Source: Anaerolineae bacterium
Lineage (GTDB): Bacteria > Chloroflexota > Anaerolineae > B4-G1 > DUEL01
Assembly (NCBI GenBank): GCA_041082215.1
Contig: JBDOIF010000171.1
Span: forward strand, 1 to 64,000
Direction: 5' to 3'
DNA: 64,000 nt
Shown here: positions 192-58,543 of the stretch, in pieces
How positions within the stretch are numbered: the stretch's first letter is position 1
How the letters are laid out: each line of letters begins with the position of its first letter
Notes under the pieces: generated by a model
What the model saw: the letters and a program-made list of their open reading frames with translations, nothing else
Database searches by the model: none
What the model was told of the DNA's origin: nothing
Made by a program: the position numbers and the translations under genes

Positions 192-1781
192 TTGTTGACC
201 AGCTACTGGGTGCGCCAGCGGGATTACCTGCTGGAGATCGGCCGGGCGCTGACCGCCCAACTGGACCTGGACGTGGTGCTGACCAAGGTCCTTCAGGCCG
301 CGACGGAGATCCTCGCCGGTCAGGCCGCCCTGATCGCCCTCCGTCAACCCGAGGGCGGCTTTGCCATCCATGCTTCTTACGGACTCCCAACCCGCCTGCT
401 CAGCTACTTCTCCTCCCTGCTGACGGGCATTCCTGAACAGACGGGCCAGGCCGACTTCCATATCCCCGAGCTGGCGGCCAGGCTCCGCCAGGTCGCCCTG
501 GACACCGGCCTCCCGCTGCGCCAGGTCGTCGCCCTGCCAATGCTCATCGGGCGGGAGCTGATCGGGGTCCTCTACGTCTTCCGGGCTCACGGCGCCAGCT
601 TCACCCCCAGCGACCGCCAGATCCTCTCCAGCTTCGCCGACCAGGCCGCCATCGCCGTCCACAACGCCCAGCTCTACCAGCGGCTGGCCCAGGAGAAACG
701 GCGGCTGGACGCTATCCTGGAATACAGCGCCGATGGGGTGATGATCCTGGACCCCGGCCAGCGGATCACCGTCTTCAACCGGGCCCTCTCGGAGATGACT
801 GGCTGGTCCGCAGCCGAGGCCATTGGCCGCCATCACGACGAGGTCATCGTCTGGACCCGGCTGGAGACAGGGATGGACCTGAACCAGGCGGTGGCAGGGG
901 GATGGCCCCTGGGCGGGGGCCGAAGCGGTAAATCCCCCCTCTATGTCGAAGGGGACCTCCGGCGCCGGTCGGGGGGGACGATCAGCGTTGGCATCACCTA
1001 TGCCCCCCTGATGGACCGGGAGGGACGGCTGGTCAATATCATCGCCAACGTGCGCGACATCACCCGGTTCCGCGAGGCAGACCGATTGAAATCCACATTT
1101 GTCTCCATCGTCTCTCACGAGCTGAAGACCCCCGTGGCGACCATTCTGGGGTACGCCGAGACCCTGGCCCGCCCGGATGCGCGGTGGGACCCGGAGACGG
1201 CGCGGGAGCTGGCGGAGACCATTAAGGACGAGGCCCGGCGGCTCGACCGGCTGATCACCGACCTCCTGGACGTCTCCCGGCTTCAGGCTGGAGCGCTGCC
1301 GCTGCGGATGGAGGAGGTGGACCTGGAACTGATGGCCCACCGGGTTGCCCGACGGTTTCAGCCCCGAAGCGACCGCCACCAGATCTCCGTCCGCTTTCCG
1401 GGTAACTTCCCCCTGGTTAAAGGGGATGGCATGCGTCTGGAACAGGTGCTGGACAACCTGGTCTCCAACGCCATCAAGTATTCCCCGGAGGGGGGGCAGG
1501 TCCGTATCCGCGGCCGGGTCTTTCCAGACGAGGTGGTGGTCACGGTGAGCGATGAGGGGATCGGCATCCCGGCCACCGAGCAGGGGCGCATCTTCGAAGC
1601 CTTCTACCGGGTGGACGACCACTCGACACGGCGGACGGGAGGAGCCGGCCTGGGGCTTTACCTGGCCCGCGCGATTGTGGAGGCCCACGGCGGGCGGATC
1701 TGGGTAGAAAGCGAGCCGGGGAAAGGCTCCTCGTTCTCTTTCGCACTTCCACGCGCCGACAAGAAGACGACCGAAAACTGA
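192..1781 (+). CDS. Cytoplasmic GAF-PAS sensor histidine kinase
   Basis: GAF ([15 protein letters not shown]), PAS ([13 protein letters not shown]), H-box VSHELKTP, N-box [10 protein letters not shown]-boxes DEGIGI and GAGLGL. Confidence 0.92.
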
Positions 1782-1797
1782 AACGAAAGGACGTTCG

Positions 1798-3168
1798 ATG
1801 GCCCAAGCACTGGCAAGAATCACCTGTCCCAACTGCAAGCAGCCTTTCGCCGCACCGGTGGACCAGATACTGGACGTGGACCTGGACCCATCGGCCAGGA
1901 CCCGGCTCCTGTCGGGCCAGGTCAACGTGGTGGTCTGCCCGCACTGCGGCGCGGCCGGCACGCTCAATATACCCTTCCTGTACCACGACGCTTCCAAAGA
2001 GCTGGCCCTGGTCTTTATGCCGATGGAGGCTGGCCGCACCGACCTGGAGCGTCAGCAGTTCATCGGCTCCCTTTCGCAGGCCGTGATGAGACAGCTCCCC
2101 CCCGAACAGCGAAAAGGCTACCTCCTTAACCCACAGGTCTTCTTCACCTACGAGAGCCTGGTCAACCGCGTGCTGGAAGCGGAGGGGATCACGCAGGAGA
2201 TGATCGAGGCCCAGAAGGCCAGGGTGGAATTGCTGCGACGGCTCGTGGAGGCCCCTTCACCGGAGGAGCGGACGAAGCTGATCCGTGAGAACGCGCTGAT
2301 GCTGGACGATGAGTTCTTCGGCCTCCTCTACGCCAACCTGGCCCAGGCAGAGGCGGTCGGCCGGGAAGACCTGGCGCAGCGGTTTCTCGAAGTGCGCGCT
2401 CTGCTCTTTGAGCAGACCCCCCTGGGCCGTCGCCTGGCCAGACGGACAGAGGCGCTCAAGGCGCTTCAGGCAGAGCCAACCCGGGAAAAGCTCCTGGCAC
2501 TGCTGATCGAGAGCGAGGACCCGGACACACGGGCCGCCCTGATCACCTTCGGGCAGCCGCTGGTGGATTACCTGTTCTTCCAGGGGCTCACGCAGCGGAT
2601 CGAGGCGACCGGGGACGAGCAGGAACGGAAACGGCTGGAAGACCTGCGGGCAGAGGTGCTCCAGATCCGCAAGGAGATACAGGAACAGGCCCGCCAGGTG
2701 GTGGATTCGCGGGCGCAGCTTGTAGAGGAGTTGCTGAAAACGGAAAAGCCTGAACTGCTGGCCCGCCGTCGCCTGGCAGAGCTGGATGAACTCTTCTTCA
2801 GCGTCCTGGCGACGGAGATCGAACAGGCGCAGCGGCTCGGCGATACAGAGACTGTTTCCCGCCTTCAGGAAATCTGGCGGCTGACCATGGAGCTGCTCGA
2901 GGGCCAGGTCCCTCCGGAGCTGAGGCTGCTGACGCGGGTGATGGAGGCCAGGGACACCGATGAGATCCGGGAGGTGCTGGAAGCCAACCGGAGGATTGTG
3001 GGAGAACCGTTCGTCCGGCTGCTCGAAGAGGTCAAACAGCAGTTAACGGAGCAGGGAGAGGAAAAGGCCGCCCGGCGGGCCGAAGCCGCCCTTTCGATCG
3101 CCCGCTCTATGGCAGGAGAAGGTTCAGGCAGAACGGCGACGCCCAAACTGGAGATCGCTAAAAAGTAG
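1798..3168 (+). CDS. CpXC domain protein with helical C-terminus
   Basis: N-terminal CPNC...CPHC followed by PFLYHD; AAAGGA RBS. Confidence 0.8.
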   Translation: MAQALARITCPNCKQPFAAPVDQILDVDLDPSARTRLLSGQVNVVVCPHCGAAGTLNIPFLYHDASKELALVFMPMEAGRTDLERQQFIGSLSQAVMRQLPPEQRKGYLLNPQVFFTYESLVNRVLEAEGITQEMIEAQKARVELLRRLVEAPSPEERTKLIRENALMLDDEFFGLLYANLAQAEAVGREDLAQRFLEVRALLFEQTPLGRRLARRTEALKALQAEPTREKLLALLIESEDPDTRAALITFGQPLVDYLFFQGLTQRIEATGDEQERKRLEDLRAEVLQIRKEIQEQARQVVDSRAQLVEELLKTEKPELLARRRLAELDELFFSVLATEIEQAQRLGDTETVSRLQEIWRLTMELLEGQVPPELRLLTRVMEARDTDEIREVLEANRRIVGEPFVRLLEEVKQQLTEQGEEKAARRAEAALSIARSMAGEGSGRTATPKLEIAKK

Positions 3169-3182
3169 GAAACGGCCTCCCC

Positions 3183-3830
3183 TCACCGGTTCTCCAGCCG
3201 AAAACCATGCCCCCGGACGGTCACAATATACTGATGGTCGGGGTCCGCTGAGACCAGCCGCTCCCGCAGCCGGCGGACGAGGGCATCTATGGCCTGTTCG
3301 GAGATCCCCTCTGCCGCCTCTTCGGGCCACACTGCGGAGACGACCTCCTCCCGCGACACCACCTGCCCCTCAGCATCCAGCAGGGCGACGAGGAGCCGGT
3401 ACTGGGCCGGGGAGAGAGGCGGGATAAGCTCCTGCCCCCCCACGAAGACGCGGCGTGCGGCCCGATCAACCCGCAGCCCCCGGGCAGGACCCTCCACCTC
3501 CAGCGGCAACGTGGCATCCGCACCCACGAAGCCCAGCTTCACGCACAGCGCGATCTGAATCTCATCCCCGTCCTCCAGAATCCGCGGCCGGTCCCGTACC
3601 TCCTCCCCGTTGACGAACGTGCCGTTCTTGCTGCCCAGGTCGTACAGCGCGTACACCCCCGCGGCAACCCGCTCAATGCGGGCATGGTGGCGGGAGACCT
3701 GCCGTTCGGGCAGGATCACGTCACAGTCGGACCCCCGGCCGATGAGGAGCTCATCCCCTTCGACCAGCCACCGCTGCCCGGCGAGCGCCCCCTCATAGGC
3801 GACCAGCATAGGGACTTCAGGCCTCTCCAT
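3183..3830 (-). CDS. FHA domain + OmpR-type winged-helix transcription regulator
   Basis: FHA motifs [22 protein letters not shown]-terminal [12 protein letters not shown]...[12 protein letters not shown]; start re-assigned to ATG 3830 behind AAGGAGG. Confidence 0.88.
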
Positions 3831-52090: not shown

Positions 52091-52102
52091 ACCATCATTC
52101 AG

Positions 52103-52174
52103 AGCGGGTGAGGGGATTCGAACCCCTGGCATTCAGCTTGGGAAGCTGACGTTCTGCCGCTGAACTACACCCGC
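52103..52174 (-). tRNA. tRNA-Gly (anticodon CCC), CCA not encoded
   Basis: GCGGGTG acceptor stem, anticodon arm TCAGC-TTCCCAA-GCTGA, GGTTCGAATCC T-arm. Confidence 0.95.
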
Positions 52175-52211: not shown

Positions 52212-52243
52212 GCAGTTGTAATACACCTCCCCGTTGCCCCTAC

Positions 52244-52272
52244 TTGACACAACCCCCCCTTTGTGTTATCCT
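52244..52272 (+). promoter_or_regulatory. Promoter for the MBL hydrolase / RNase H genes
   Basis: TTGACA-N17-TATCCT with TG extension. Confidence 0.6.
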
Positions 52273-52317
52273 CGGAAACCACCTGTACATCCCCCCAGAC
52301 CTTTCTTGGAGGTAGGT

Positions 52318-53151
52318 ATGCTCCGGGAGCGCGTCTCCACAGATATTTACGTCTTCACCAGTGACCTCTACGCTCAGGTTACAGCCGGAGTGATCGCAAC
52401 ACCGGCTGGGGTTATCATGGTGGACACCCTTCCCTTTCCCATCGAGACCCGGGAGATCGCCTCGTTCATCGCCAACCGGTTCCCCGTGGGAGTTCGATAC
52501 ATCGTCCTCACCCACTACCATGCCGATCACGTCTACGGAGCCTATCTCTTCCCCGAGGCGCAGGTTGTGGCCCATGCCCGCTGCCGCCACCTCCTCTCGA
52601 CGCTCGGAGAACAGGGGCTGGCGGCCGCCCGTGCCGAGGCACCGGAGCTTGAGGAAGTGGAACTGCGACTGCCCGACCTCACTCTGGAAGACGAAAAGAT
52701 GGGCCTCCATGTGGGGGATAAGACGCTGTGGCTGCTCTGGATGCCAGGCCATAGCGAAGATATGGTGTCCGTCTTCGTGGAAGAGGAGCGGATCCTCCTG
52801 GCCAGCGACCTGGTGATGCCGGTGCCCACCATCATTGACGGGGACATCGGTGCGATGAGACGCTCACTCCAGAAGGTCCTGGAGCTGGAGCCAGAGGGTA
52901 TCGTCCAGGGACACGGGGAGGTCATCCTCCGGGGCGAGGTGAGGGAGGTGATCCAGCGGAATCTCAACTACCTGGATACGATCTACGAACTGGTCGCCGA
53001 AGCGGTGGCAGAAGGAAGACGGCGGGAGACGCTTCTGGGTGTAGACATCGAGAAGTGCGGCCTTTCGCGCGTCGCCCTCCACGGTGAGGCCCCCCGTCTC
53101 CACGCCGCTAACCTCTTCTCTCTCTACGAGCGGATGAAGCGAAATGGATGA
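52318..53151 (+). CDS. MBL-fold metallo-hydrolase
   Basis: THYHADH, PGHS, ASD, QGHG; ATG after GGAGGT. Confidence 0.9.
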   Translation: MLRERVSTDIYVFTSDLYAQVTAGVIATPAGVIMVDTLPFPIETREIASFIANRFPVGVRYIVLTHYHADHVYGAYLFPEAQVVAHARCRHLLSTLGEQGLAAARAEAPELEEVELRLPDLTLEDEKMGLHVGDKTLWLLWMPGHSEDMVSVFVEEERILLASDLVMPVPTIIDGDIGAMRRSLQKVLELEPEGIVQGHGEVILRGEVREVIQRNLNYLDTIYELVAEAVAEGRRRETLLGVDIEKCGLSRVALHGEAPRLHAANLFSLYERMKRNG

Positions 53152-53698
53152 GGAGCTGGTCGAGCGGATCCTGGATGCCGTGCGGGCGCTCTCAGACGAA
53201 CAGCGCCGCCGCCTGCTCCTGCGGCTGGCGGAAGAATACGACACGACGCAGGAGCCGCTCCCCATCCCCTTTGAAGCACCCCGGCTGGAAGGGCCCGCCG
53301 ACTATATGATCCTCTTCGACGGCGGAAGCCAGGGCAACCCCGGCCCGGCCTACGGAAGCTACCGGCTCACCCGCCTGGTTGACGGCCGCAGCACGGTGGT
53401 GCGGCTCGATTTCGAAGAGGAGATGACCAGCAATGAGGCGGAGTACCAGACACTGATCGCCGCGCTGGAGGGGTTGATCGGCCGCATCGAGGCAGCAGGG
53501 CGGGACCCGGCCGATTTCTCCGTGGAGGTGCGGGGGGATAGCGCGCTGGTCCTCCACCAGGTCGAAGGGACCTGGAAGGCAAAGGACGTCCGGATGCGCA
53601 TGCTGCGCAACCGGGCGAGGGAGCTTCTATCTCGCTTCAAGGGTTACCGGCTGGTGCTCCAGGGCCGGGAGGAGAGCGTGCAGGCGCTGGGCCATTGA
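53144..53698 (+). CDS. Ribonuclease HI-like protein
   Basis: FDGGSQGNPG, TSNEAEY, GDSALV. Confidence 0.85.
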   Translation: MDEELVERILDAVRALSDEQRRRLLLRLAEEYDTTQEPLPIPFEAPRLEGPADYMILFDGGSQGNPGPAYGSYRLTRLVDGRSTVVRLDFEEEMTSNEAEYQTLIAALEGLIGRIEAAGRDPADFSVEVRGDSALVLHQVEGTWKAKDVRMRMLRNRARELLSRFKGYRLVLQGREESVQALGH

Positions 53699-53700
53699 AC

Positions 53701-53729
53701 TTGACAGCCACCCCGTCCTGTGGCATAAT
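53701..53729 (+). promoter_or_regulatory. Promoter of the T-box leader
   Basis: TTGACA-N17-CATAAT with TG extension. Confidence 0.75.
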
Positions 53730-53746
53730 GAAAACAACTTTTCAGA

Positions 53747-54031
53747 GGCTGTGATGGAGACGAGTAAGCCCGGTGTACCGGCCCAGAGAGCCCGGGGCAG
53801 GTGAGAGCCGGGTACGGGAACCGGGCCGAAAATCCCTCCGGAGCCGCCGACCGAACAGTGTAGCGCAGGCCTTCGCCTGTGCCACATCCAGTAGACTCGG
53901 CCGGGTTCGTCCCCCGTTATCAGGACGCGGCGATGGTCCGTCGCCGACAGAGAGGCCCTGCCCGGACGCAGGGCAAGAAGGGTGGTACCGCGGGAGCGTG
54001 AGGCTCTCGTCCCTTCGGGGGCGAGGGCCTC
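53747..54031 (+). ncRNA. T-box riboswitch, Ile specifier (AUC)
   Basis: GA motif GCTGTGA/GGAGC, AGTA, AGAGA bulge, GGTGAGA loop, GAA-A-ATC (53832-53834), CCGTTA, T-box AAGGGTGGTACCGCG (53978-53992), alternative hairpin 54000-54031. Confidence 0.92.
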
Positions 54032-54033
54032 TT

Positions 54034-54091
54034 CATATGATGACGCTTGACGAATGAGGCCAAGCTTCAGGCGTCAAGCGTCAGGCATATG
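54034..54091. repeat. Inverted 7-nt array forming a hairpin
   Basis: CATATGA TGACGCT TGACGAA TGAGGC ... GCTTCA GGCGTCA AGCGTCA GGCATATG. Confidence 0.75.
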
Positions 54092-54096
54092 CACTT

Positions 54097-55152
54097 TCAC
54101 AATTCCACTTCCATCACCCATCCCCAGAGGTCGGGGCGTTCCTGGAGCTGGACCGCCTCCAGCGCCTGCCGGAGCTGCCGGGCCCGGGGGCCGGGCTGCC
54201 CGTCGCCAACAGGATAATCCACTCCCTTGTAGTTGATGACAGTGATGGGGGAAAGAACGGCGGCAGTGCCGGTGTAGAAGGCCTCTACAGCGTCGCTCAG
54301 CACCTCCTCGATGGGAAGCTTCCGCTCGACAGCGATCCAGCCGAAGAGGTCGCGGGCGATGGTGAGGACCGAGTCCCGTGTGATGCCAGGAAGGATGGAA
54401 CCCAGTGCCGGGGTGACCAGCGTGCCGTCCCGCAGGACGGCAAAGAAATTGGCGCCGCTGAATTCCTCGATGTACCGATCCTCCCGGGCGTCCAGATAAA
54501 GGGCATCCACGTAGCCCATCTTCCTGGCAACCTGCTCGGGCAGGAGGGAGGCAGCGTAGTTGCCCCCCGTCTTCGCTGCGCCGGTGCCCCAGGGGGCGGC
54601 CCTGTGGACCGAGGAGAGGACGATGGCCCGATCCCCACCCATGTACTGGCCCACCGGGCAGACAAAGACGCAGAACAGGTACTCCCGGGAGGGCTGAACG
54701 CCGAGGACTGGCCCGGAGCCGATGAGGAGCGGCCGGATGTAGAGGCTCCCCTTCTCAGGGGCAGGCACCCAGCGGGCGTTGGCCCGCACGACCGCCAGCA
54801 TCGCTTCCATAAAGCTCTCCACCGACGGGGCCTCCATCACCAGCCGGGCGGCGGAGGCGCGGAGGCGGCGGGCGTTGTCCAGAGGGCGGAAGAGGACGAC
54901 CTTCCCCCCCCGCGTGCGGCGAGCCTTCAACCCCTCGAAGACCGCCTGACCGTAATGGAGGACGCTGGCACCGAGGGGGAGCTCCAGGGTAGCCCCCGGA
55001 TGCTCGTAGAGCCTCCCAGGCTCCCAGCCAGCTCCTTCGCTCCAGCGACAGAGCCAGAAGGCGTCTGTCTCACGGTACTGGAAGCCCAGCTCGTCATCCC
55101 AGCCCGGTTCCTGTGGAAGGCGAGGGGATTGATCGGTGAACGGTTTCAGCAT
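54097..55152 (-). CDS. ilvE: Branched-chain amino acid aminotransferase
   Basis: LHYGQAVFEGLKA, LFRP, SLYIRP, AKTGGNY (PLP Lys), EEFSGANFF, ILPGITR, EAFYTGTAA. Confidence 0.95.
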   Translation of the reverse strand: MLKPFTDQSPRLPQEPGWDDELGFQYRETDAFWLCRWSEGAGWEPGRLYEHPGATLELPLGASVLHYGQAVFEGLKARRTRGGKVVLFRPLDNARRLRASAARLVMEAPSVESFMEAMLAVVRANARWVPAPEKGSLYIRPLLIGSGPVLGVQPSREYLFCVFVCPVGQYMGGDRAIVLSSVHRAAPWGTGAAKTGGNYAASLLPEQVARKMGYVDALYLDAREDRYIEEFSGANFFAVLRDGTLVTPALGSILPGITRDSVLTIARDLFGWIAVERKLPIEEVLSDAVEAFYTGTAAVLSPITVINYKGVDYPVGDGQPGPRARQLRQALEAVQLQERPDLWGWVMEVEL

Positions 55153-55190
55153 TGCACTTCCCTCCTTTGTTGGGATGCGGCGGCATGTTC

Positions 55191-55218
55191 ATTGTAGGGG
55201 AAATGGGAAAGGTGTCAA
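55191..55218 (-). promoter_or_regulatory. ilvE promoter
   Basis: TTGACA-N16-TACAAT on the minus strand; AAAGGAGG RBS downstream. Confidence 0.7.
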
Positions 55219-55249
55219 CTCCTGATAGGAGTGGGAAAGGAGAAAGAAG

Positions 55250-58200
55250 ATGCTGTTTCAGAAAGTTCACACACCCACCGACTTTGTGAGTCTGGAGCAC
55301 CGTATCCTTGAGTTCTGGAAAGCGTCGAACGCGTTTGGGAAGCTGGTCGAGCTGCGGGAAGGCAGCCCCCGCTGGTCCTTCATAGACGGCCCGATCACCG
55401 CCAACAACCCGATGGGCGTTCATCACGGGTGGGGGCGCACTTATAAAGACCTGTTCCACCGTTATAAGGCGATGCGCGGCTTCCATACGCGCTACCAGAA
55501 CGGCTTCGACTGCCAGGGGCTCTGGGTCGAGGTCGAGGTCGAAAAAGAGCTGGGCTTCCGCTCCAAGCGGGATATCGAAAACTACGGCATAGACCGCTTC
55601 GTCCGTAAATGCAAAGAGCGGGTGCTCCGCTACGCCGCCGTCCAGACGGAGCAGTCCATCCGGCTGGGCTACTGGATGGACTGGAACGATCCCGATTTCC
55701 TGCGAGAGCTGGGAAACCGGCTGATGGAAAACCCCAACGAGGTCATCACCGTCCATGGCCCCCAGGGACCGGTGACCGACACGGTGGAACAGATCGTGGG
55801 CCGGCTGGGGCTGCCGGAGCTGGGCGGCTCCTACTTTACCTTCTCCAACGAGAATAACTACATGATCTGGACCTTCCTCAAGCGTTGCTGGGAACGGGGA
55901 TGGCTCTACAAAGGTACGGATGTGATGCCCTGGTGCCCCCGCTGCGCCACCGGCATCAGCCAGCACGAGATCGCCACCGAGGGGTACCAGGAACGCACCC
56001 ACCCCAGCGTCATCCTCCGCTTCCCGCTGCGAGGGCGGCCCAGCGAGAGCCTCCTGGTCTGGACCACCACCCCCTGGACCCTGACAAGCAACGTGGCGGC
56101 GGCAGCAGGGCCCAAGCTGACCTATGTCCGGGTCCGCCAGGGAGACGAGGTATTCTACCTCTCCAAAGGCACTCTCCATCAGTTGTCGGGTCCCTACGAG
56201 GTGCTGGAGGAGATGATGGGAACGGCGCTGGAGGGCTGGACCTACGACGGCCCCTTCGACGAGCTGGAGGCCCAGCGGGAAGCTGGCGGCCCCCAGGCCC
56301 ACCGGGTGGTCCTCTGGGACGAGGTGGGGGAGGCGGAAGGCACCGGCATTGTCCACATCGCGCCAGGGTGCGGTGCAGAGGACTTCGCCCTCAGCAGGGA
56401 GTACAACCTCCCCGCCATCGCCCCGCTGGACGAGGAGGGGTACTTTATCCCGGGCTTCGGCCCTTTCAGCGCCACCCACGTCTCCGAAAGCGCCGGGCGG
56501 GTCTTCGCCAGCCTGCGGGAGAAGGGACTGCTCTACAGGGTAGAGGACTACACTCACCGCTACCCCGTCTGCTGGCGGTGCGGCACCGACCTGGTCTTCC
56601 GTCTGGTGGACGAGTGGTTCATCTCGATGGACGAGCTGCGCCACGATATGATGGAGGTGACCCGACAGATCCGCTGGCTTCCCTCCTTCGGCCTGGAACG
56701 GGAGCTGGACTGGCTGCGGAATATGCACGACTGGATGATCAGCAAAAAGCGGTACTGGGGACTGGCGCTGCCCATCTGGGAGTGCAAGGAGTGTGGACAC
56801 TTCCACGTCATCGGCAACGAACGTGAACTGAAAGAACGGGCCATCGCTGGCTGGGAGGAGTTCGAGGGCCACACCCCCCACCGCCCCTGGGTGGACGCGG
56901 TCCGTATCGCCTGTCCCAACTGCGGCGCGGAGGTGAGCCGCATCCCCGACGTGGGCAACCCCTGGCTGGACGCGGGGATCGTCAGCTTCAGCACCCTCCA
57001 GTACCGGACCAACCGGGAGTACTGGCGGCAATGGTACCCGGCCGACTTCATCACCGAGTCCTTCCCCGGCCAGTTCCGCAACTGGTTCTACTCCCTTCTG
57101 GCGATGGCAACCGTCCTGGAGAACTCGCCCCCCTTCAGGACCTGCTTCGGCTATGCCACATTGCTGGCGGAGGACGGGCGGGAGATGCACAAGTCCTGGG
57201 GCAACGCCATCGAGTTCAACGAGGCCGCCGACCGGATGGGGGTGGACGTGATGCGGTGGCTCTACTGCCGCCAGAAGCCGGAGAAGGACCTGCTCTTCGG
57301 CTACAACAAGGCAGACGAGGTCCGCCGTCAGTTCCTCCTCCCCCTCTGGAACGCCTACGTCTTCTTCGTCACCTACGCGCGGCTGGACCAGTGGACGCCT
57401 TGTAGCGCAAGTTTAAACTTGCGCTACAATCTGCTGGACCGCTGGATCCTGGCCCGCCTCAACCAGGTCGTTGCTCAGGTGACGGAGCGGCTGGAGGATT
57501 ACGACGCCTATGGCGCGACGCTCGTCGTCGAGCCCTTTATTGACGATCTGACCAACTGGTACCTCCGCCGCAGCCGACGCCGCTTCTGGAAGAGCGAGCA
57601 GGACGCGGATAAGAACGCGGCCTACGCCACCCTCTACCGGGTCCTCACCACCCTCTGCCGGCTTCTGGCCCCCTTTGTCCCCTTCGTCACCGAGGCCATG
57701 TATCAGAACCTGGTCCGCTCGGTGGACGCGGACGCGCCGGAGAGCGTCCACCACACCAACTGGCCGGAACCGGACCTATCGCTGGTGGATGAGGAGCTGC
57801 TGGCACAAATGGAGCTGGCCCGTGAAGTGGTCGCGGTGGGCCATTCGGCCCGCAACAGCGCCGGCATCAAACTGCGCCAGCCCCTGGCGCGCGCGCTGAT
57901 CTACCTTGAGCCGGATGTGGGCGGGCTGGACGGGGAGCTGGTGACGCTGGTGCAGGAGGAGATGAACGTCAAGGAGGTCTCCTTCGTGAAGGAACTCGGC
58001 GACCTGGTGACCTACCGGCTGCTGCCGGACAACCGGGTGCTCGGCCCCCGCTTCGGCGGGCGGTTCCCGGCCTTGCGGGCGGCGCTGACGGGGCTGGAAC
58101 CCGCGGCCGCGGTGCGGCGGCTGCGCGCGGGGGTTCCCCTCCATCTGGAGGTGGAAGGGGAAGAGGTGGAGCTGGCACCGGAAGAGGTGCTGATCCAGGA

Positions 58201-58543
58201 AGAGCCCCAGGAGGGACTGGCGGTGGCCTCGGAGAAGGGGGTGACCGTCGCCGTGGAGACGGCCCTCACACCGGACCTGCGCGCCGAGGGGCTGGCCCGT
58301 GAGGTGATCCGACGGGTGCAGAACCTGCGCAAGGAGGCAGGCCTGGAGCTGGATGACCGCATCGTGGTCCGCTATCAGGCGGAAGGGGAGCTGGCAGAAG
58401 CAGTGGAGGCGTGGCGGGAGTACATCGCTGCCGAGACGCTCGCGGTGGAGTGGGCGGCTGGCGAGCCGGAGCCAGGCATGCAGGTTGAGGAGTTCCGGGT
58501 AGAGGGACACCGGCTACAGGTCGGCCTGCGGCGGGCCGGCTGA
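55250..58543 (+). CDS. ileS: Isoleucine--tRNA ligase, type 2
   Basis: DGPITAN, GVHH, GFDCQGL, WTTTPWTL, GTGIVH, DWMISKKRYWG, EMHKS; long IleRS2-type C-terminus. Confidence 0.96.
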   Translation: MLFQKVHTPTDFVSLEHRILEFWKASNAFGKLVELREGSPRWSFIDGPITANNPMGVHHGWGRTYKDLFHRYKAMRGFHTRYQNGFDCQGLWVEVEVEKELGFRSKRDIENYGIDRFVRKCKERVLRYAAVQTEQSIRLGYWMDWNDPDFLRELGNRLMENPNEVITVHGPQGPVTDTVEQIVGRLGLPELGGSYFTFSNENNYMIWTFLKRCWERGWLYKGTDVMPWCPRCATGISQHEIATEGYQERTHPSVILRFPLRGRPSESLLVWTTTPWTLTSNVAAAAGPKLTYVRVRQGDEVFYLSKGTLHQLSGPYEVLEEMMGTALEGWTYDGPFDELEAQREAGGPQAHRVVLWDEVGEAEGTGIVHIAPGCGAEDFALSREYNLPAIAPLDEEGYFIPGFGPFSATHVSESAGRVFASLREKGLLYRVEDYTHRYPVCWRCGTDLVFRLVDEWFISMDELRHDMMEVTRQIRWLPSFGLERELDWLRNMHDWMISKKRYWGLALPIWECKECGHFHVIGNERELKERAIAGWEEFEGHTPHRPWVDAVRIACPNCGAEVSRIPDVGNPWLDAGIVSFSTLQYRTNREYWRQWYPADFITESFPGQFRNWFYSLLAMATVLENSPPFRTCFGYATLLAEDGREMHKSWGNAIEFNEAADRMGVDVMRWLYCRQKPEKDLLFGYNKADEVRRQFLLPLWNAYVFFVTYARLDQWTPCSASLNLRYNLLDRWILARLNQVVAQVTERLEDYDAYGATLVVEPFIDDLTNWYLRRSRRRFWKSEQDADKNAAYATLYRVLTTLCRLLAPFVPFVTEAMYQNLVRSVDADAPESVHHTNWPEPDLSLVDEELLAQMELAREVVAVGHSARNSAGIKLRQPLARALIYLEPDVGGLDGELVTLVQEEMNVKEVSFVKELGDLVTYRLLPDNRVLGPRFGGRFPALRAALTGLEPAAAVRRLRAGVPLHLEVEGEEVELAPEEVLIQEEPQEGLAVASEKGVTVAVETALTPDLRAEGLAREVIRRVQNLRKEAGLELDDRIVVRYQAEGELAEAVEAWREYIAAETLAVEWAAGEPEPGMQVEEFRVEGHRLQVGLRRAG

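Follow-up and report, generated by a model that had tools for sequence, protein, structure and literature searches.

In a stretch of DNA of 64,000 nucleotides (nt) from an Anaerolineae bacterium of a hot-spring clade of Chloroflexota (the window, positions 1 to 64,000), an isoleucine (Ile) T-box riboswitch is separated from ileS, the gene for isoleucyl-tRNA synthetase (IleRS), by about 1.2 kb of DNA carrying ilvE, a gene for a branched-chain amino acid aminotransferase (BCAT), on the opposite strand. Comparison of this region (approximately 52234 to 58543) with its relatives makes it probable that the T-box controls ileS at a distance, with uncharged tRNA-Ile allowing read-through of a long RNA that would be antisense to ilvE and would then encode IleRS. 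More tentatively, and with rather less than even confidence, we propose that the locus is a tRNA-gated excludon: a single T-box RNA would be both the IleRS mRNA and, in its first kilobase, an antisense silencer of the only BCAT, the riboswitch terminator would double as the ilvE terminator in some lineages, and selection for reciprocal control would have kept the arrangement across two Anaerolineae families.

A sequence-only reading of this DNA had named the parts: a leader promoter, a T-box with an AUC specifier and a UGGU bulge, ilvE on the minus strand with a promoter of its own, and ileS on the plus strand. All of them were recovered at the positions it had given (Table 1). Only two promoter-like sites occur between 53400 and 55400, those of the T-box leader and of ilvE, compared with 0.2 expected from shuffled sequences, and the −35 box of the ilvE promoter lies about 20 nt from the Shine-Dalgarno sequence of ileS. 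The ileS product scores above the equivalog cut-off of TIGR00392 (714.8 vs 621.4 bits), and ileS is the sole isoleucyl-tRNA synthetase gene found in the genome, where the other matches are partial paralogues with 28–33% identity. The ilvE product (351 amino acids) also exceeds its equivalog cut-offs (TIGR01123: 325.2 vs 250.05 bits; NF009897: 367.3 vs 307 bits) and is the only match to Aminotran_4 (class IV aminotransferase) in the genome, the assembly of which comprises 174 contigs, is 96% complete and holds six T-boxes.

Table 1. Features of the T-box/ilvE/ileS locus and its upstream flank (positions in the window; +, plus strand; −, minus strand;., no strand)
Feature	Position	Strand	Evidence or remark
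T-box leader promoter TTGACA-17-(TG)CATAAT	53701..53729	+	11/12 matches, extended −10
Ile T-box leader	53742..54017	+	RF00230 92.8 bits, E 1.5e-20, model positions 1–219
Specifier codon AUC (Ile)	53832..53834	+	Specifier position of the Rfam alignment
T-box bulge UGGU, partner of the tRNA A73-C-C-A end	53983..53986	+	GGGUGGUACCGCG in aligned leaders
Riboswitch terminator hairpin, 14 pairs, UUCG loop, weak U tail	54000..54031	+	−28.6 kcal/mol
58-nt palindrome of GCGTCAA-like heptamer repeats	54034..54091	.	−36.1 kcal/mol; between riboswitch terminator and ilvE stop
ilvE, type II branched-chain amino acid aminotransferase	54097..55152	−	NF009897 367.3 bits, TIGR01123 325.2 bits
ilvE–ileS gap, 97 nt	55153..55249	.	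ilvE promoter and 5′ untranslated region, ileS ribosome-binding site
ilvE promoter TTGACA-16-TACAAT	55191..55218	−	11/12 matches
ileS	55250..58543	+	TIGR00392 714.8 bits; Pfam tRNA-synt_1, Anticodon_1, DUF5915 (C-terminal domain)
Metallo-beta-lactamase-fold gene	52234..53151	+	Pfam Lactamase_B E 4.9e-23; conserved upstream flank of the T-box
RNase H-like gene	53144..53698	+	Pfam RVT_3 and weak NCBIfam RNase HI matches, below cut-off

The Rfam model matches the leader over its full length. The score is 0.2 bits below the gathering score of 93.0, so that a default Rfam scan is silent and a permissive scan finds the element; orthologous leaders next to ilvE reach 121.3 bits on the same model. The specifier codon stands in the context GAAA-AUC-C (53828–53835), and the base 3′ of it is C or A, where a purine is usual. 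The conserved T-box sequence with its UGGN bulge is AGGGUGGUACCGCG (53979–53992). The genome has a single tRNA-Ile(GAU) (contig C87), with discriminator base A73 and an encoded CCA end; it matches UGGU, in agreement with the earlier suggestion that the U of the bulge suits tRNA-Ile. The predicted antiterminator (−17.5 kcal/mol) and the more stable terminator share the segment 54004–54013, which makes them mutually exclusive.

In the window, the U tail of the terminator is weak (UUCAUAUG), and neither of two terminator scans called the hairpin. Terminator calls were made for the orthologous hairpin with its U tract in 19 of 22 ilvE-containing genomes, as well as in 10 of the 11 that lack ilvE. 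Translational T-boxes, which sequester the ribosome-binding site, are known from actinobacterial ileS. We rejected this type for the present leader: since its relatives carry hairpin and U-tract terminators, it is taken to be a transcription-attenuating T-box.

The switch elements hardly vary. Among 26 aligned leaders (that of the window and 25 orthologues), the specifier context GAAA-AUC is unchanged in all, and GGGUGGUACCGCG is found in 25, the leader of genome G025 carrying one change. In 12 genomes in which no sense gene follows the leader, 20 of 76 predicted base pairs are kept through double changes. These fall in stem I, in stem III and in the terminator (four pairs), and the antiterminator is also kept by compensatory changes. 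The pattern indicates that the T-box is under structural selection where no sense gene follows it, unlike a relic.

We surveyed 145 species genomes of the order for type II ilvE (threshold E ≤ 1e-80) and, in sampled relatives, mapped the genes of the DNA between T-box and ileS by tblastn. Type II ilvE is present in 31 genomes: that of the window, 21 of the 25 others in family f1, 9 of 48 in family f2 and none of 71 in f3. Twenty-three of the 31 have a single contig that holds T-box, antisense ilvE and ileS in this order (in one of these, G053, the stretch examined cut the T-box). Five more (G012, G020, G021, G023 and G024) have T-box and ilvE tail to tail, and the contig or the examined stretch ends before ileS; in two (G002 and G017) a contig end cuts the region. 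Only in G004 are ilvE and ileS separated from each other. The earlier reading had allowed for an arrangement unique to this assembly, through recent insertion or misassembly. With the layout kept across two families, it is not an assembly artefact.

All 40 sampled relatives have T-boxes and an IleRS match, which is a close orthologue in 38 and of paralogue level only in G002 and G037 (E 7.5e-32 and 5.6e-25). The riboswitch is convergent at the 3′ end of ilvE, the distance from the end of the T-box model to the ilvE stop being 79 nt in the window and 18–183 nt in 11 relatives. Seven ilvE genomes examined later and contig L077 have the same order of parts. In a contig search, the ilvE matches among the 80 loci kept comprised two from close relatives (L076 and L077), all others being BCATs of other phyla with 35–46% identity.

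The relatives also show into what ilvE was placed. In f3, the leader stands directly before ileS, 65–135 nt away, in all seven genomes examined, and G029 of f2 has the same layout. Further f2 genomes have T-box-GNAT-ileS (G033 and G035), T-box-ilvE(−)-ileS (G025), T-box-GNAT-AlaX-like-ilvE(−)-ileS (G039), or T-box-GNAT-AlaX-like followed by a minus-strand pair with a PIN toxin and then ileS (G027). Within f1, G003, G008, G010 and G011 have the layout of the window, and G007 has retained the GNAT gene. G001 and the genus g5 carry a plus-strand PMT_2 glycosyltransferase gene between ilvE and ileS, and G019 has in addition retained the AlaX-like gene; in g5 the PMT_2 gene takes up about 2.5 kb of a path from leader to ileS of 3.7–4.7 kb. 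The ancestral state would be a T-box directly before ileS (all seven f3 genomes, G029) or linked to it through GNAT (G033 and G035), and the comparison indicates that ilvE lies within a group of genes that other genomes have as an operon.

The Ile T-box operon of relatives includes, before ileS, a gene for a GNAT acetyltransferase and/or an AlaX-like (tRNA_SAD) free-standing editing-domain protein (L047 1427–2634, L054 1084–2288, L049 1608–2147 on the minus strand, L071 4019–4837 on the minus strand). NCBIfam NF040702 describes an IleRS fused to a GNAT domain, and GNAT and IleRS may be functionally linked. One of the minus-strand cassettes before ileS consists of a PIN toxin gene and that of a 111-amino-acid partner (L047 2640–3388, minus strand); others look toxin-antitoxin-like by eye. 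In G012, the PMT_2 gene beside ilvE appears, by eye, to be cut after about 60 codons by an opposite-strand IS-like transposase gene (L160 1–620, G012:C4, at a contig end).

Several features of the junctions bear on whether the T-box still serves ileS. In G007, the stops of GNAT and ilvE overlap as CTAG, and in G039 the AlaX-like open reading frame (1569–2288, plus strand) and that of ilvE (2285–3430, minus strand) overlap by 4 nt, again with the junction CTAG. In five g5 genomes, the ilvE stop lies 18 nt past the end of the T-box model. These overlaps and this spacing leave no room for a terminator at the junctions. In five of the eight g5 genomes scanned, the riboswitch hairpin itself was also called as a minus-strand terminator, a few nt after the ilvE stop. 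Other terminator-like calls on the plus strand (stem of at least 8 pairs) occurred in only two of 22 ilvE-containing genomes, in 54,980 nt scanned from riboswitch to ileS. In G014 they lie inside PMT_2, and the other genome is G025.

Promoters for ileS alone were not recognised either. The sequence-only reading saw no convincing plus-strand promoter in the 97-nt gap, and our scan agreed, finding no plus-strand site with at least 8/12 matches between the T-box and the ileS ATG of the window. Nor was there a plus-strand site with at least 9/12 matches in ilvE or the gap in eight genomes in which ilvE abuts ileS. In five genomes, the ilvE–ileS gaps measure 62–97 nt and are filled by the minus-strand promoter, with its −35 box about 10–25 nt from the ileS ribosome-binding site. 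This promoter (TTGAC/TTGCGC-N17-TAyAAT) is visible in 13 of 15 ilvE-proximal gaps; the gaps of G025 and G019 show only a GTCAA box. We also found no conserved ileS promoter in the PMT_2–ileS gaps of g5, which are 62–85 nt long or filled by further minus-strand cassettes. The same scan finds the T-box promoter with at least 10/12 matches in 18 of the 26 orthologous leaders, which shows that it can pick up canonical promoters in this clade; by eye, the leader promoter is also recognisable in five g5 genomes as TTGACA..TGGTATAAG/A.

Genome G004 provides a natural experiment. Its contig C63 carries PMT_2, ilvE and the T-box, with cmk and rpiB among the genes that come next. Its ileS lies on contig C51 behind a pseudouridine synthase gene; an extended −10 box (TGTATAAT) stands 40 nt upstream of ileS, and the preceding 6.5 kb hold no T-box. 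The T-box next to ilvE scores 48.0 bits, compared with 84.2–121.3 bits in 27 other full-length leaders adjacent to ilvE. Relative to five congeners, it has U-AUAUC in place of UGGUACC, lacks GGAGC and is altered at the base of stem I, while the leader promoter and the terminator hairpin are intact. The ilvE gene is intact as well (349 aligned residues, 77% identity). A T-box kept only for ilvE should not decay once ileS has left, whereas one kept for ileS should; the decay in G004 therefore points to ileS as the target.

A number of observations weigh against control of ileS through the T-box. The genomes compared are related and non-independent, so that the conservation and covariation counts given above overstate the support, and the natural experiment of G004 rests on one metagenome-assembled genome. 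The consensus scan is limited in what it detects, and ileS may have a non-canonical promoter or one internal to ilvE. With its weak U tail and a terminator that neither scan called, switching in the window may be leaky. The route to ileS in g5 is long and includes the unrelated PMT_2 gene. In G025, a 13-pair hairpin with a U tract stands on the plus strand on both sides of ilvE and could stop read-through there. The genome also encodes Rho (635 bits), for which an untranslated antisense leader of 1.1 kb would be a natural target; the plus strand is not C-rich (GC skew −0.16 to +0.12), which renders this point neutral.

Metatranscriptomes weigh neither for nor against a spanning transcript. Three of four runs, all of raw reads, yielded zero reads; the fourth, of assembled contigs, contributed six unstranded pieces, none of which bridges T-box, ilvE and ileS. 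Four of them match over most of their length (53641–53929, 54252–54463, 56166–56266 and 56237–56400), and two more touch 18–31 bases. The contig at 53641–53929 (289 nt) matches with no mismatch and begins 60 nt upstream of the leader promoter; it may stem from read-through from the upstream RNase H-like gene or from DNA carry-over.

The hairpins of G025 belong to an element of about 80 nt with two hairpins, directly repeated around ilvE (L050, approximately 1955–1985 and 3118–3148), in which the 13-pair hairpin is followed by GGTTTTTCGG. Possibly this is a small mobile element or one of the REP type.

The gene content of the genome suggests what the aminotransferase does. No match to ilvD was found in the 96% complete genome, and the best match to ilvC there reached 21.6 bits (cut-off 226). 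Acetolactate synthase is represented by a partial match of 312 bits, cut at a contig end, and a fragment of 109 bits, both below cut-off. Without ilvD and ilvC, the BCAT would not be the last step of de novo synthesis, and the organism seems to lack the capacity for Ile synthesis. The genome encodes nine Leu/Ile/Val-type binding proteins and one 2-oxoacid dehydrogenase E1. The organism probably imports branched-chain amino acids, and the BCAT would either deaminate them or salvage keto acids. The sequence-only reading had guessed at a catabolic BCAT, and the absence of ilvD and ilvC fits this guess; we infer the direction in which the enzyme works in vivo.

Relatives that have ilvD also carry a second, type I BCAT behind another, sense-oriented T-box. 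In g5, this second T-box lies directly upstream of the type I gene (G014:C27 151587–152817, G015:C140 4064–5305, G016:C12 1020–2437 and G020:C32 5820–7053). These g5 genomes have one BCAT gene behind a T-box and another facing one.

In the mechanism that we propose, transcription would start from the leader promoter. When tRNA-Ile is charged, it would stop at the riboswitch hairpin, and ilvE would be freely transcribed from its strong promoter. Uncharged tRNA-Ile(GAU) would pair through its anticodon with the AUC specifier and through its A73-CCA end with the UGGU bulge, the antiterminator would form, and RNA polymerase would continue. The predicted read-through RNA would span the whole of ilvE in antisense, pass the ilvE promoter and become the ileS mRNA. 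Since the two units run head-on and the ilvE promoter abuts the ribosome-binding site of ileS, read-through should lower ilvE expression. This would happen through polymerase collision, promoter occlusion and a duplex of sense and antisense RNA (RNase III is present in the genome). Conversely, strong transcription of ilvE would damp basal transcription of ileS, in the manner of an excludon. The putative benefit would come when Ile is scarce, as more IleRS would be made and less Ile deaminated. The sequence-only interpretation had contained both halves of this scheme. Its link between T-box and ileS has gained support from the comparative data (structural selection, overlapping stops, lack of a recognisable promoter, and G004), and the silencing of ilvE stays a prediction.

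The same data can be read in other ways. It is unlikely, in our judgement, that ilvE is a tolerated passenger without adaptive coupling, with the T-box controlling ileS by long read-through, perhaps on top of an unrecognised basal promoter. The slot before ileS does accept unrelated minus-strand cassettes, each with a minus-strand promoter abutting the ileS ribosome-binding site (the PIN-toxin pair of G027; small minus-strand genes in the PMT_2–ileS gaps of G016, G021, G022, G023 and G024), and the sense-strand genes for GNAT, AlaX-like protein and PMT_2 come and go. However, in all 28 readable genomes the 3′ end of type II ilvE faces that of the Ile T-box or of the final gene in the T-box operon, and these genomes belong to two families whose IleRS are only 73–85% identical to that of the window. 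On mechanistic grounds, moreover, head-on promoters close to consensus are not expected to be neutral for either gene.

A T-box dedicated to ilvE alone, as an antisense riboswitch whose RNA ends in or after ilvE while ileS uses a promoter of its own outside the sigma-70 consensus, seems still more improbable to us. It would explain why T-box and ilvE stay together in g5 despite the 2.5 kb of PMT_2 before ileS, and why the pair is still linked in G004 after ileS left; in addition, a computational survey (Serrano-Gutierrez and Merino 2023; PMC9943018, its Table 1) lists 107 antisense-oriented T-boxes compared with 15,851 sense-oriented ones. Yet in G004, where ilvE is the sole remaining target, the tRNA-binding elements have decayed while ilvE is intact, and no plus-strand promoter is recognisable in gaps of 62–97 nt that the minus-strand promoter already fills. 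We give very little credence to the idea that the T-box is a relic, stranded by the insertion of ilvE, kept as the terminator hairpin of ilvE and no longer sensing tRNA. The minus-strand terminator calls in g5, the survival of the hairpin in G004 and the weak U tail in the window would suit it. The 27 full-length leaders next to ilvE, however, score 84–121 bits with invariant specifier and T-box sequences, and compensatory changes have kept stem I, stem III and the antiterminator; the relic look of G004 is absent in the others.

The surroundings of the locus are partly conserved. A metallo-beta-lactamase-fold gene upstream of the T-box is also found in relatives, both with and without ilvE, and the RNase H-like gene, which ends 3 nt before the T-box promoter in the window, is kept at this place in G003, G007, G029, G033 and G039. 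Just upstream of the metallo-beta-lactamase-fold gene, the window carries a tRNA-Gly(CCC) gene (52102–52174, minus strand; Rfam 72.5 bits), and two f2 genomes have a 6S RNA gene of 79–80 bits in the corresponding place (L077 2974–3148, minus strand; L169 452–627, plus strand).

The hairpin at 54034–54091 had been put forward in the sequence-only reading as a possible end point of plus-strand transcripts. The structure is real, and the fold of positions 53960–54110 has a z-score of −8.1, but on neither strand is it followed by a U tract, and related heptamer repeats were found only in G001 and G011. We rejected the idea of a conserved second terminator here, the hairpin being repeat DNA specific to a lineage and not a general end point. 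Tandem or palindromic heptamer repeats fill intergenic gaps across the order, often at contig ends, with GCGTCAA-like units in the window, G001 and G011 (L039 and L053), GCGTGAA-like units in g5 (L069–L074) and CTGGTTG- or GACTACC-like units in f3 (L061–L063). They resemble the short tandem heptamer repeats of cyanobacteria.

Canonical ileS T-box leaders act by transcription attenuation, as in Bacillus. The leader described here resembles them in RNA family, Ile specifier, the match of UGGU with A73, the pair of terminator and antiterminator, and an aminoacyl-tRNA synthetase as target. It differs in the distance to ileS, which is 1.2 kb (3.7–4.7 kb in g5) and includes a complete opposite-strand gene with its own promoter.

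Riboswitch-controlled antisense RNAs have precedents, two of which are given as experimentally studied in the relevant passages of PMC7154746 and PMC9943018, namely S-box/ubiG and B12/pocR. In the ubiG-mccBA system of Clostridium acetobutylicum, an S-box riboswitch controls an antisense RNA for which transcriptional interference in cis has been proposed (PMC2566862, PMC7154746). As here, a metabolic gene has a convergent, transcription-attenuating riboswitch at its 3′ end, so that read-through gives an antisense RNA. There, however, the T-box acts as a leader in sense and the non-coding antisense RNA is driven by the S-box, whereas here the T-box would drive the antisense RNA, which is proposed to be the ileS mRNA. 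In Listeria monocytogenes, a B12 riboswitch controls the antisense RNA AspocR (PMC7154746), so that there, as proposed here, the ligand state of a riboswitch governs a long RNA antisense to an adjacent gene. AspocR is non-coding and its switch senses a metabolite; in the present case the switch would respond to the charging of tRNA, and the antisense stretch would form the 5′ untranslated region of an essential gene.

Excludons of Listeria were reportedly described by Sesto et al. in 2013. An excludon is a long transcript that acts as antisense RNA to one gene and carries the coding sequence of genes further along, which leads to mutually exclusive expression (PMC7154746); the paper on ExcludonFinder (PMC12288877) also belongs to this literature. 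The likeness lies in the anatomy of one transcript that is both antisense RNA and mRNA; here both this transcript and reciprocal expression are predicted. The present locus appears to have the anatomy of an excludon with a T-box gate, and in open-access literature text we found no riboswitch- or T-box-gated excludon. The survey cited above (PMC9943018) includes comparable cases, that is, antisense T-boxes and riboswitches parted from their true sense target by an opposite-strand open reading frame. Its intervening frames are short orphans without orthologues between riboswitch and sense gene, which were judged to be annotation errors, in contrast to the conserved 351-amino-acid enzyme described here. 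In the text and supplementary files of that survey that were searched, 'ilvE' and 'Anaerolinea' do not occur, and the matches to 'branched-chain' concern other riboswitches or sense arrangements.

T-boxes are treated as sitting directly on their target gene, and annotation pipelines assign targets accordingly. Our comparative data indicate that a T-box keeps working over 1.2 to 4.7 kb that include a whole opposite-strand gene. G004 offers a rare view of riboswitch decay after loss of the target, in which the tRNA-binding elements go first and the hairpin used in common with the adjacent gene persists. If the proposed mechanism is true, tRNA sensing would join the short list of riboswitch-controlled antisense RNAs, this locus would be the first riboswitch-gated excludon, and the T-box would become the first class of riboswitch for which one decision is shown to set two opposed genes. 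'Orphan' or 'antisense' riboswitches in surveys may then still serve a distant sense target. The mechanism would also show in what way an essential synthetase gene can tolerate, and perhaps exploit, antisense insertions in its leader.

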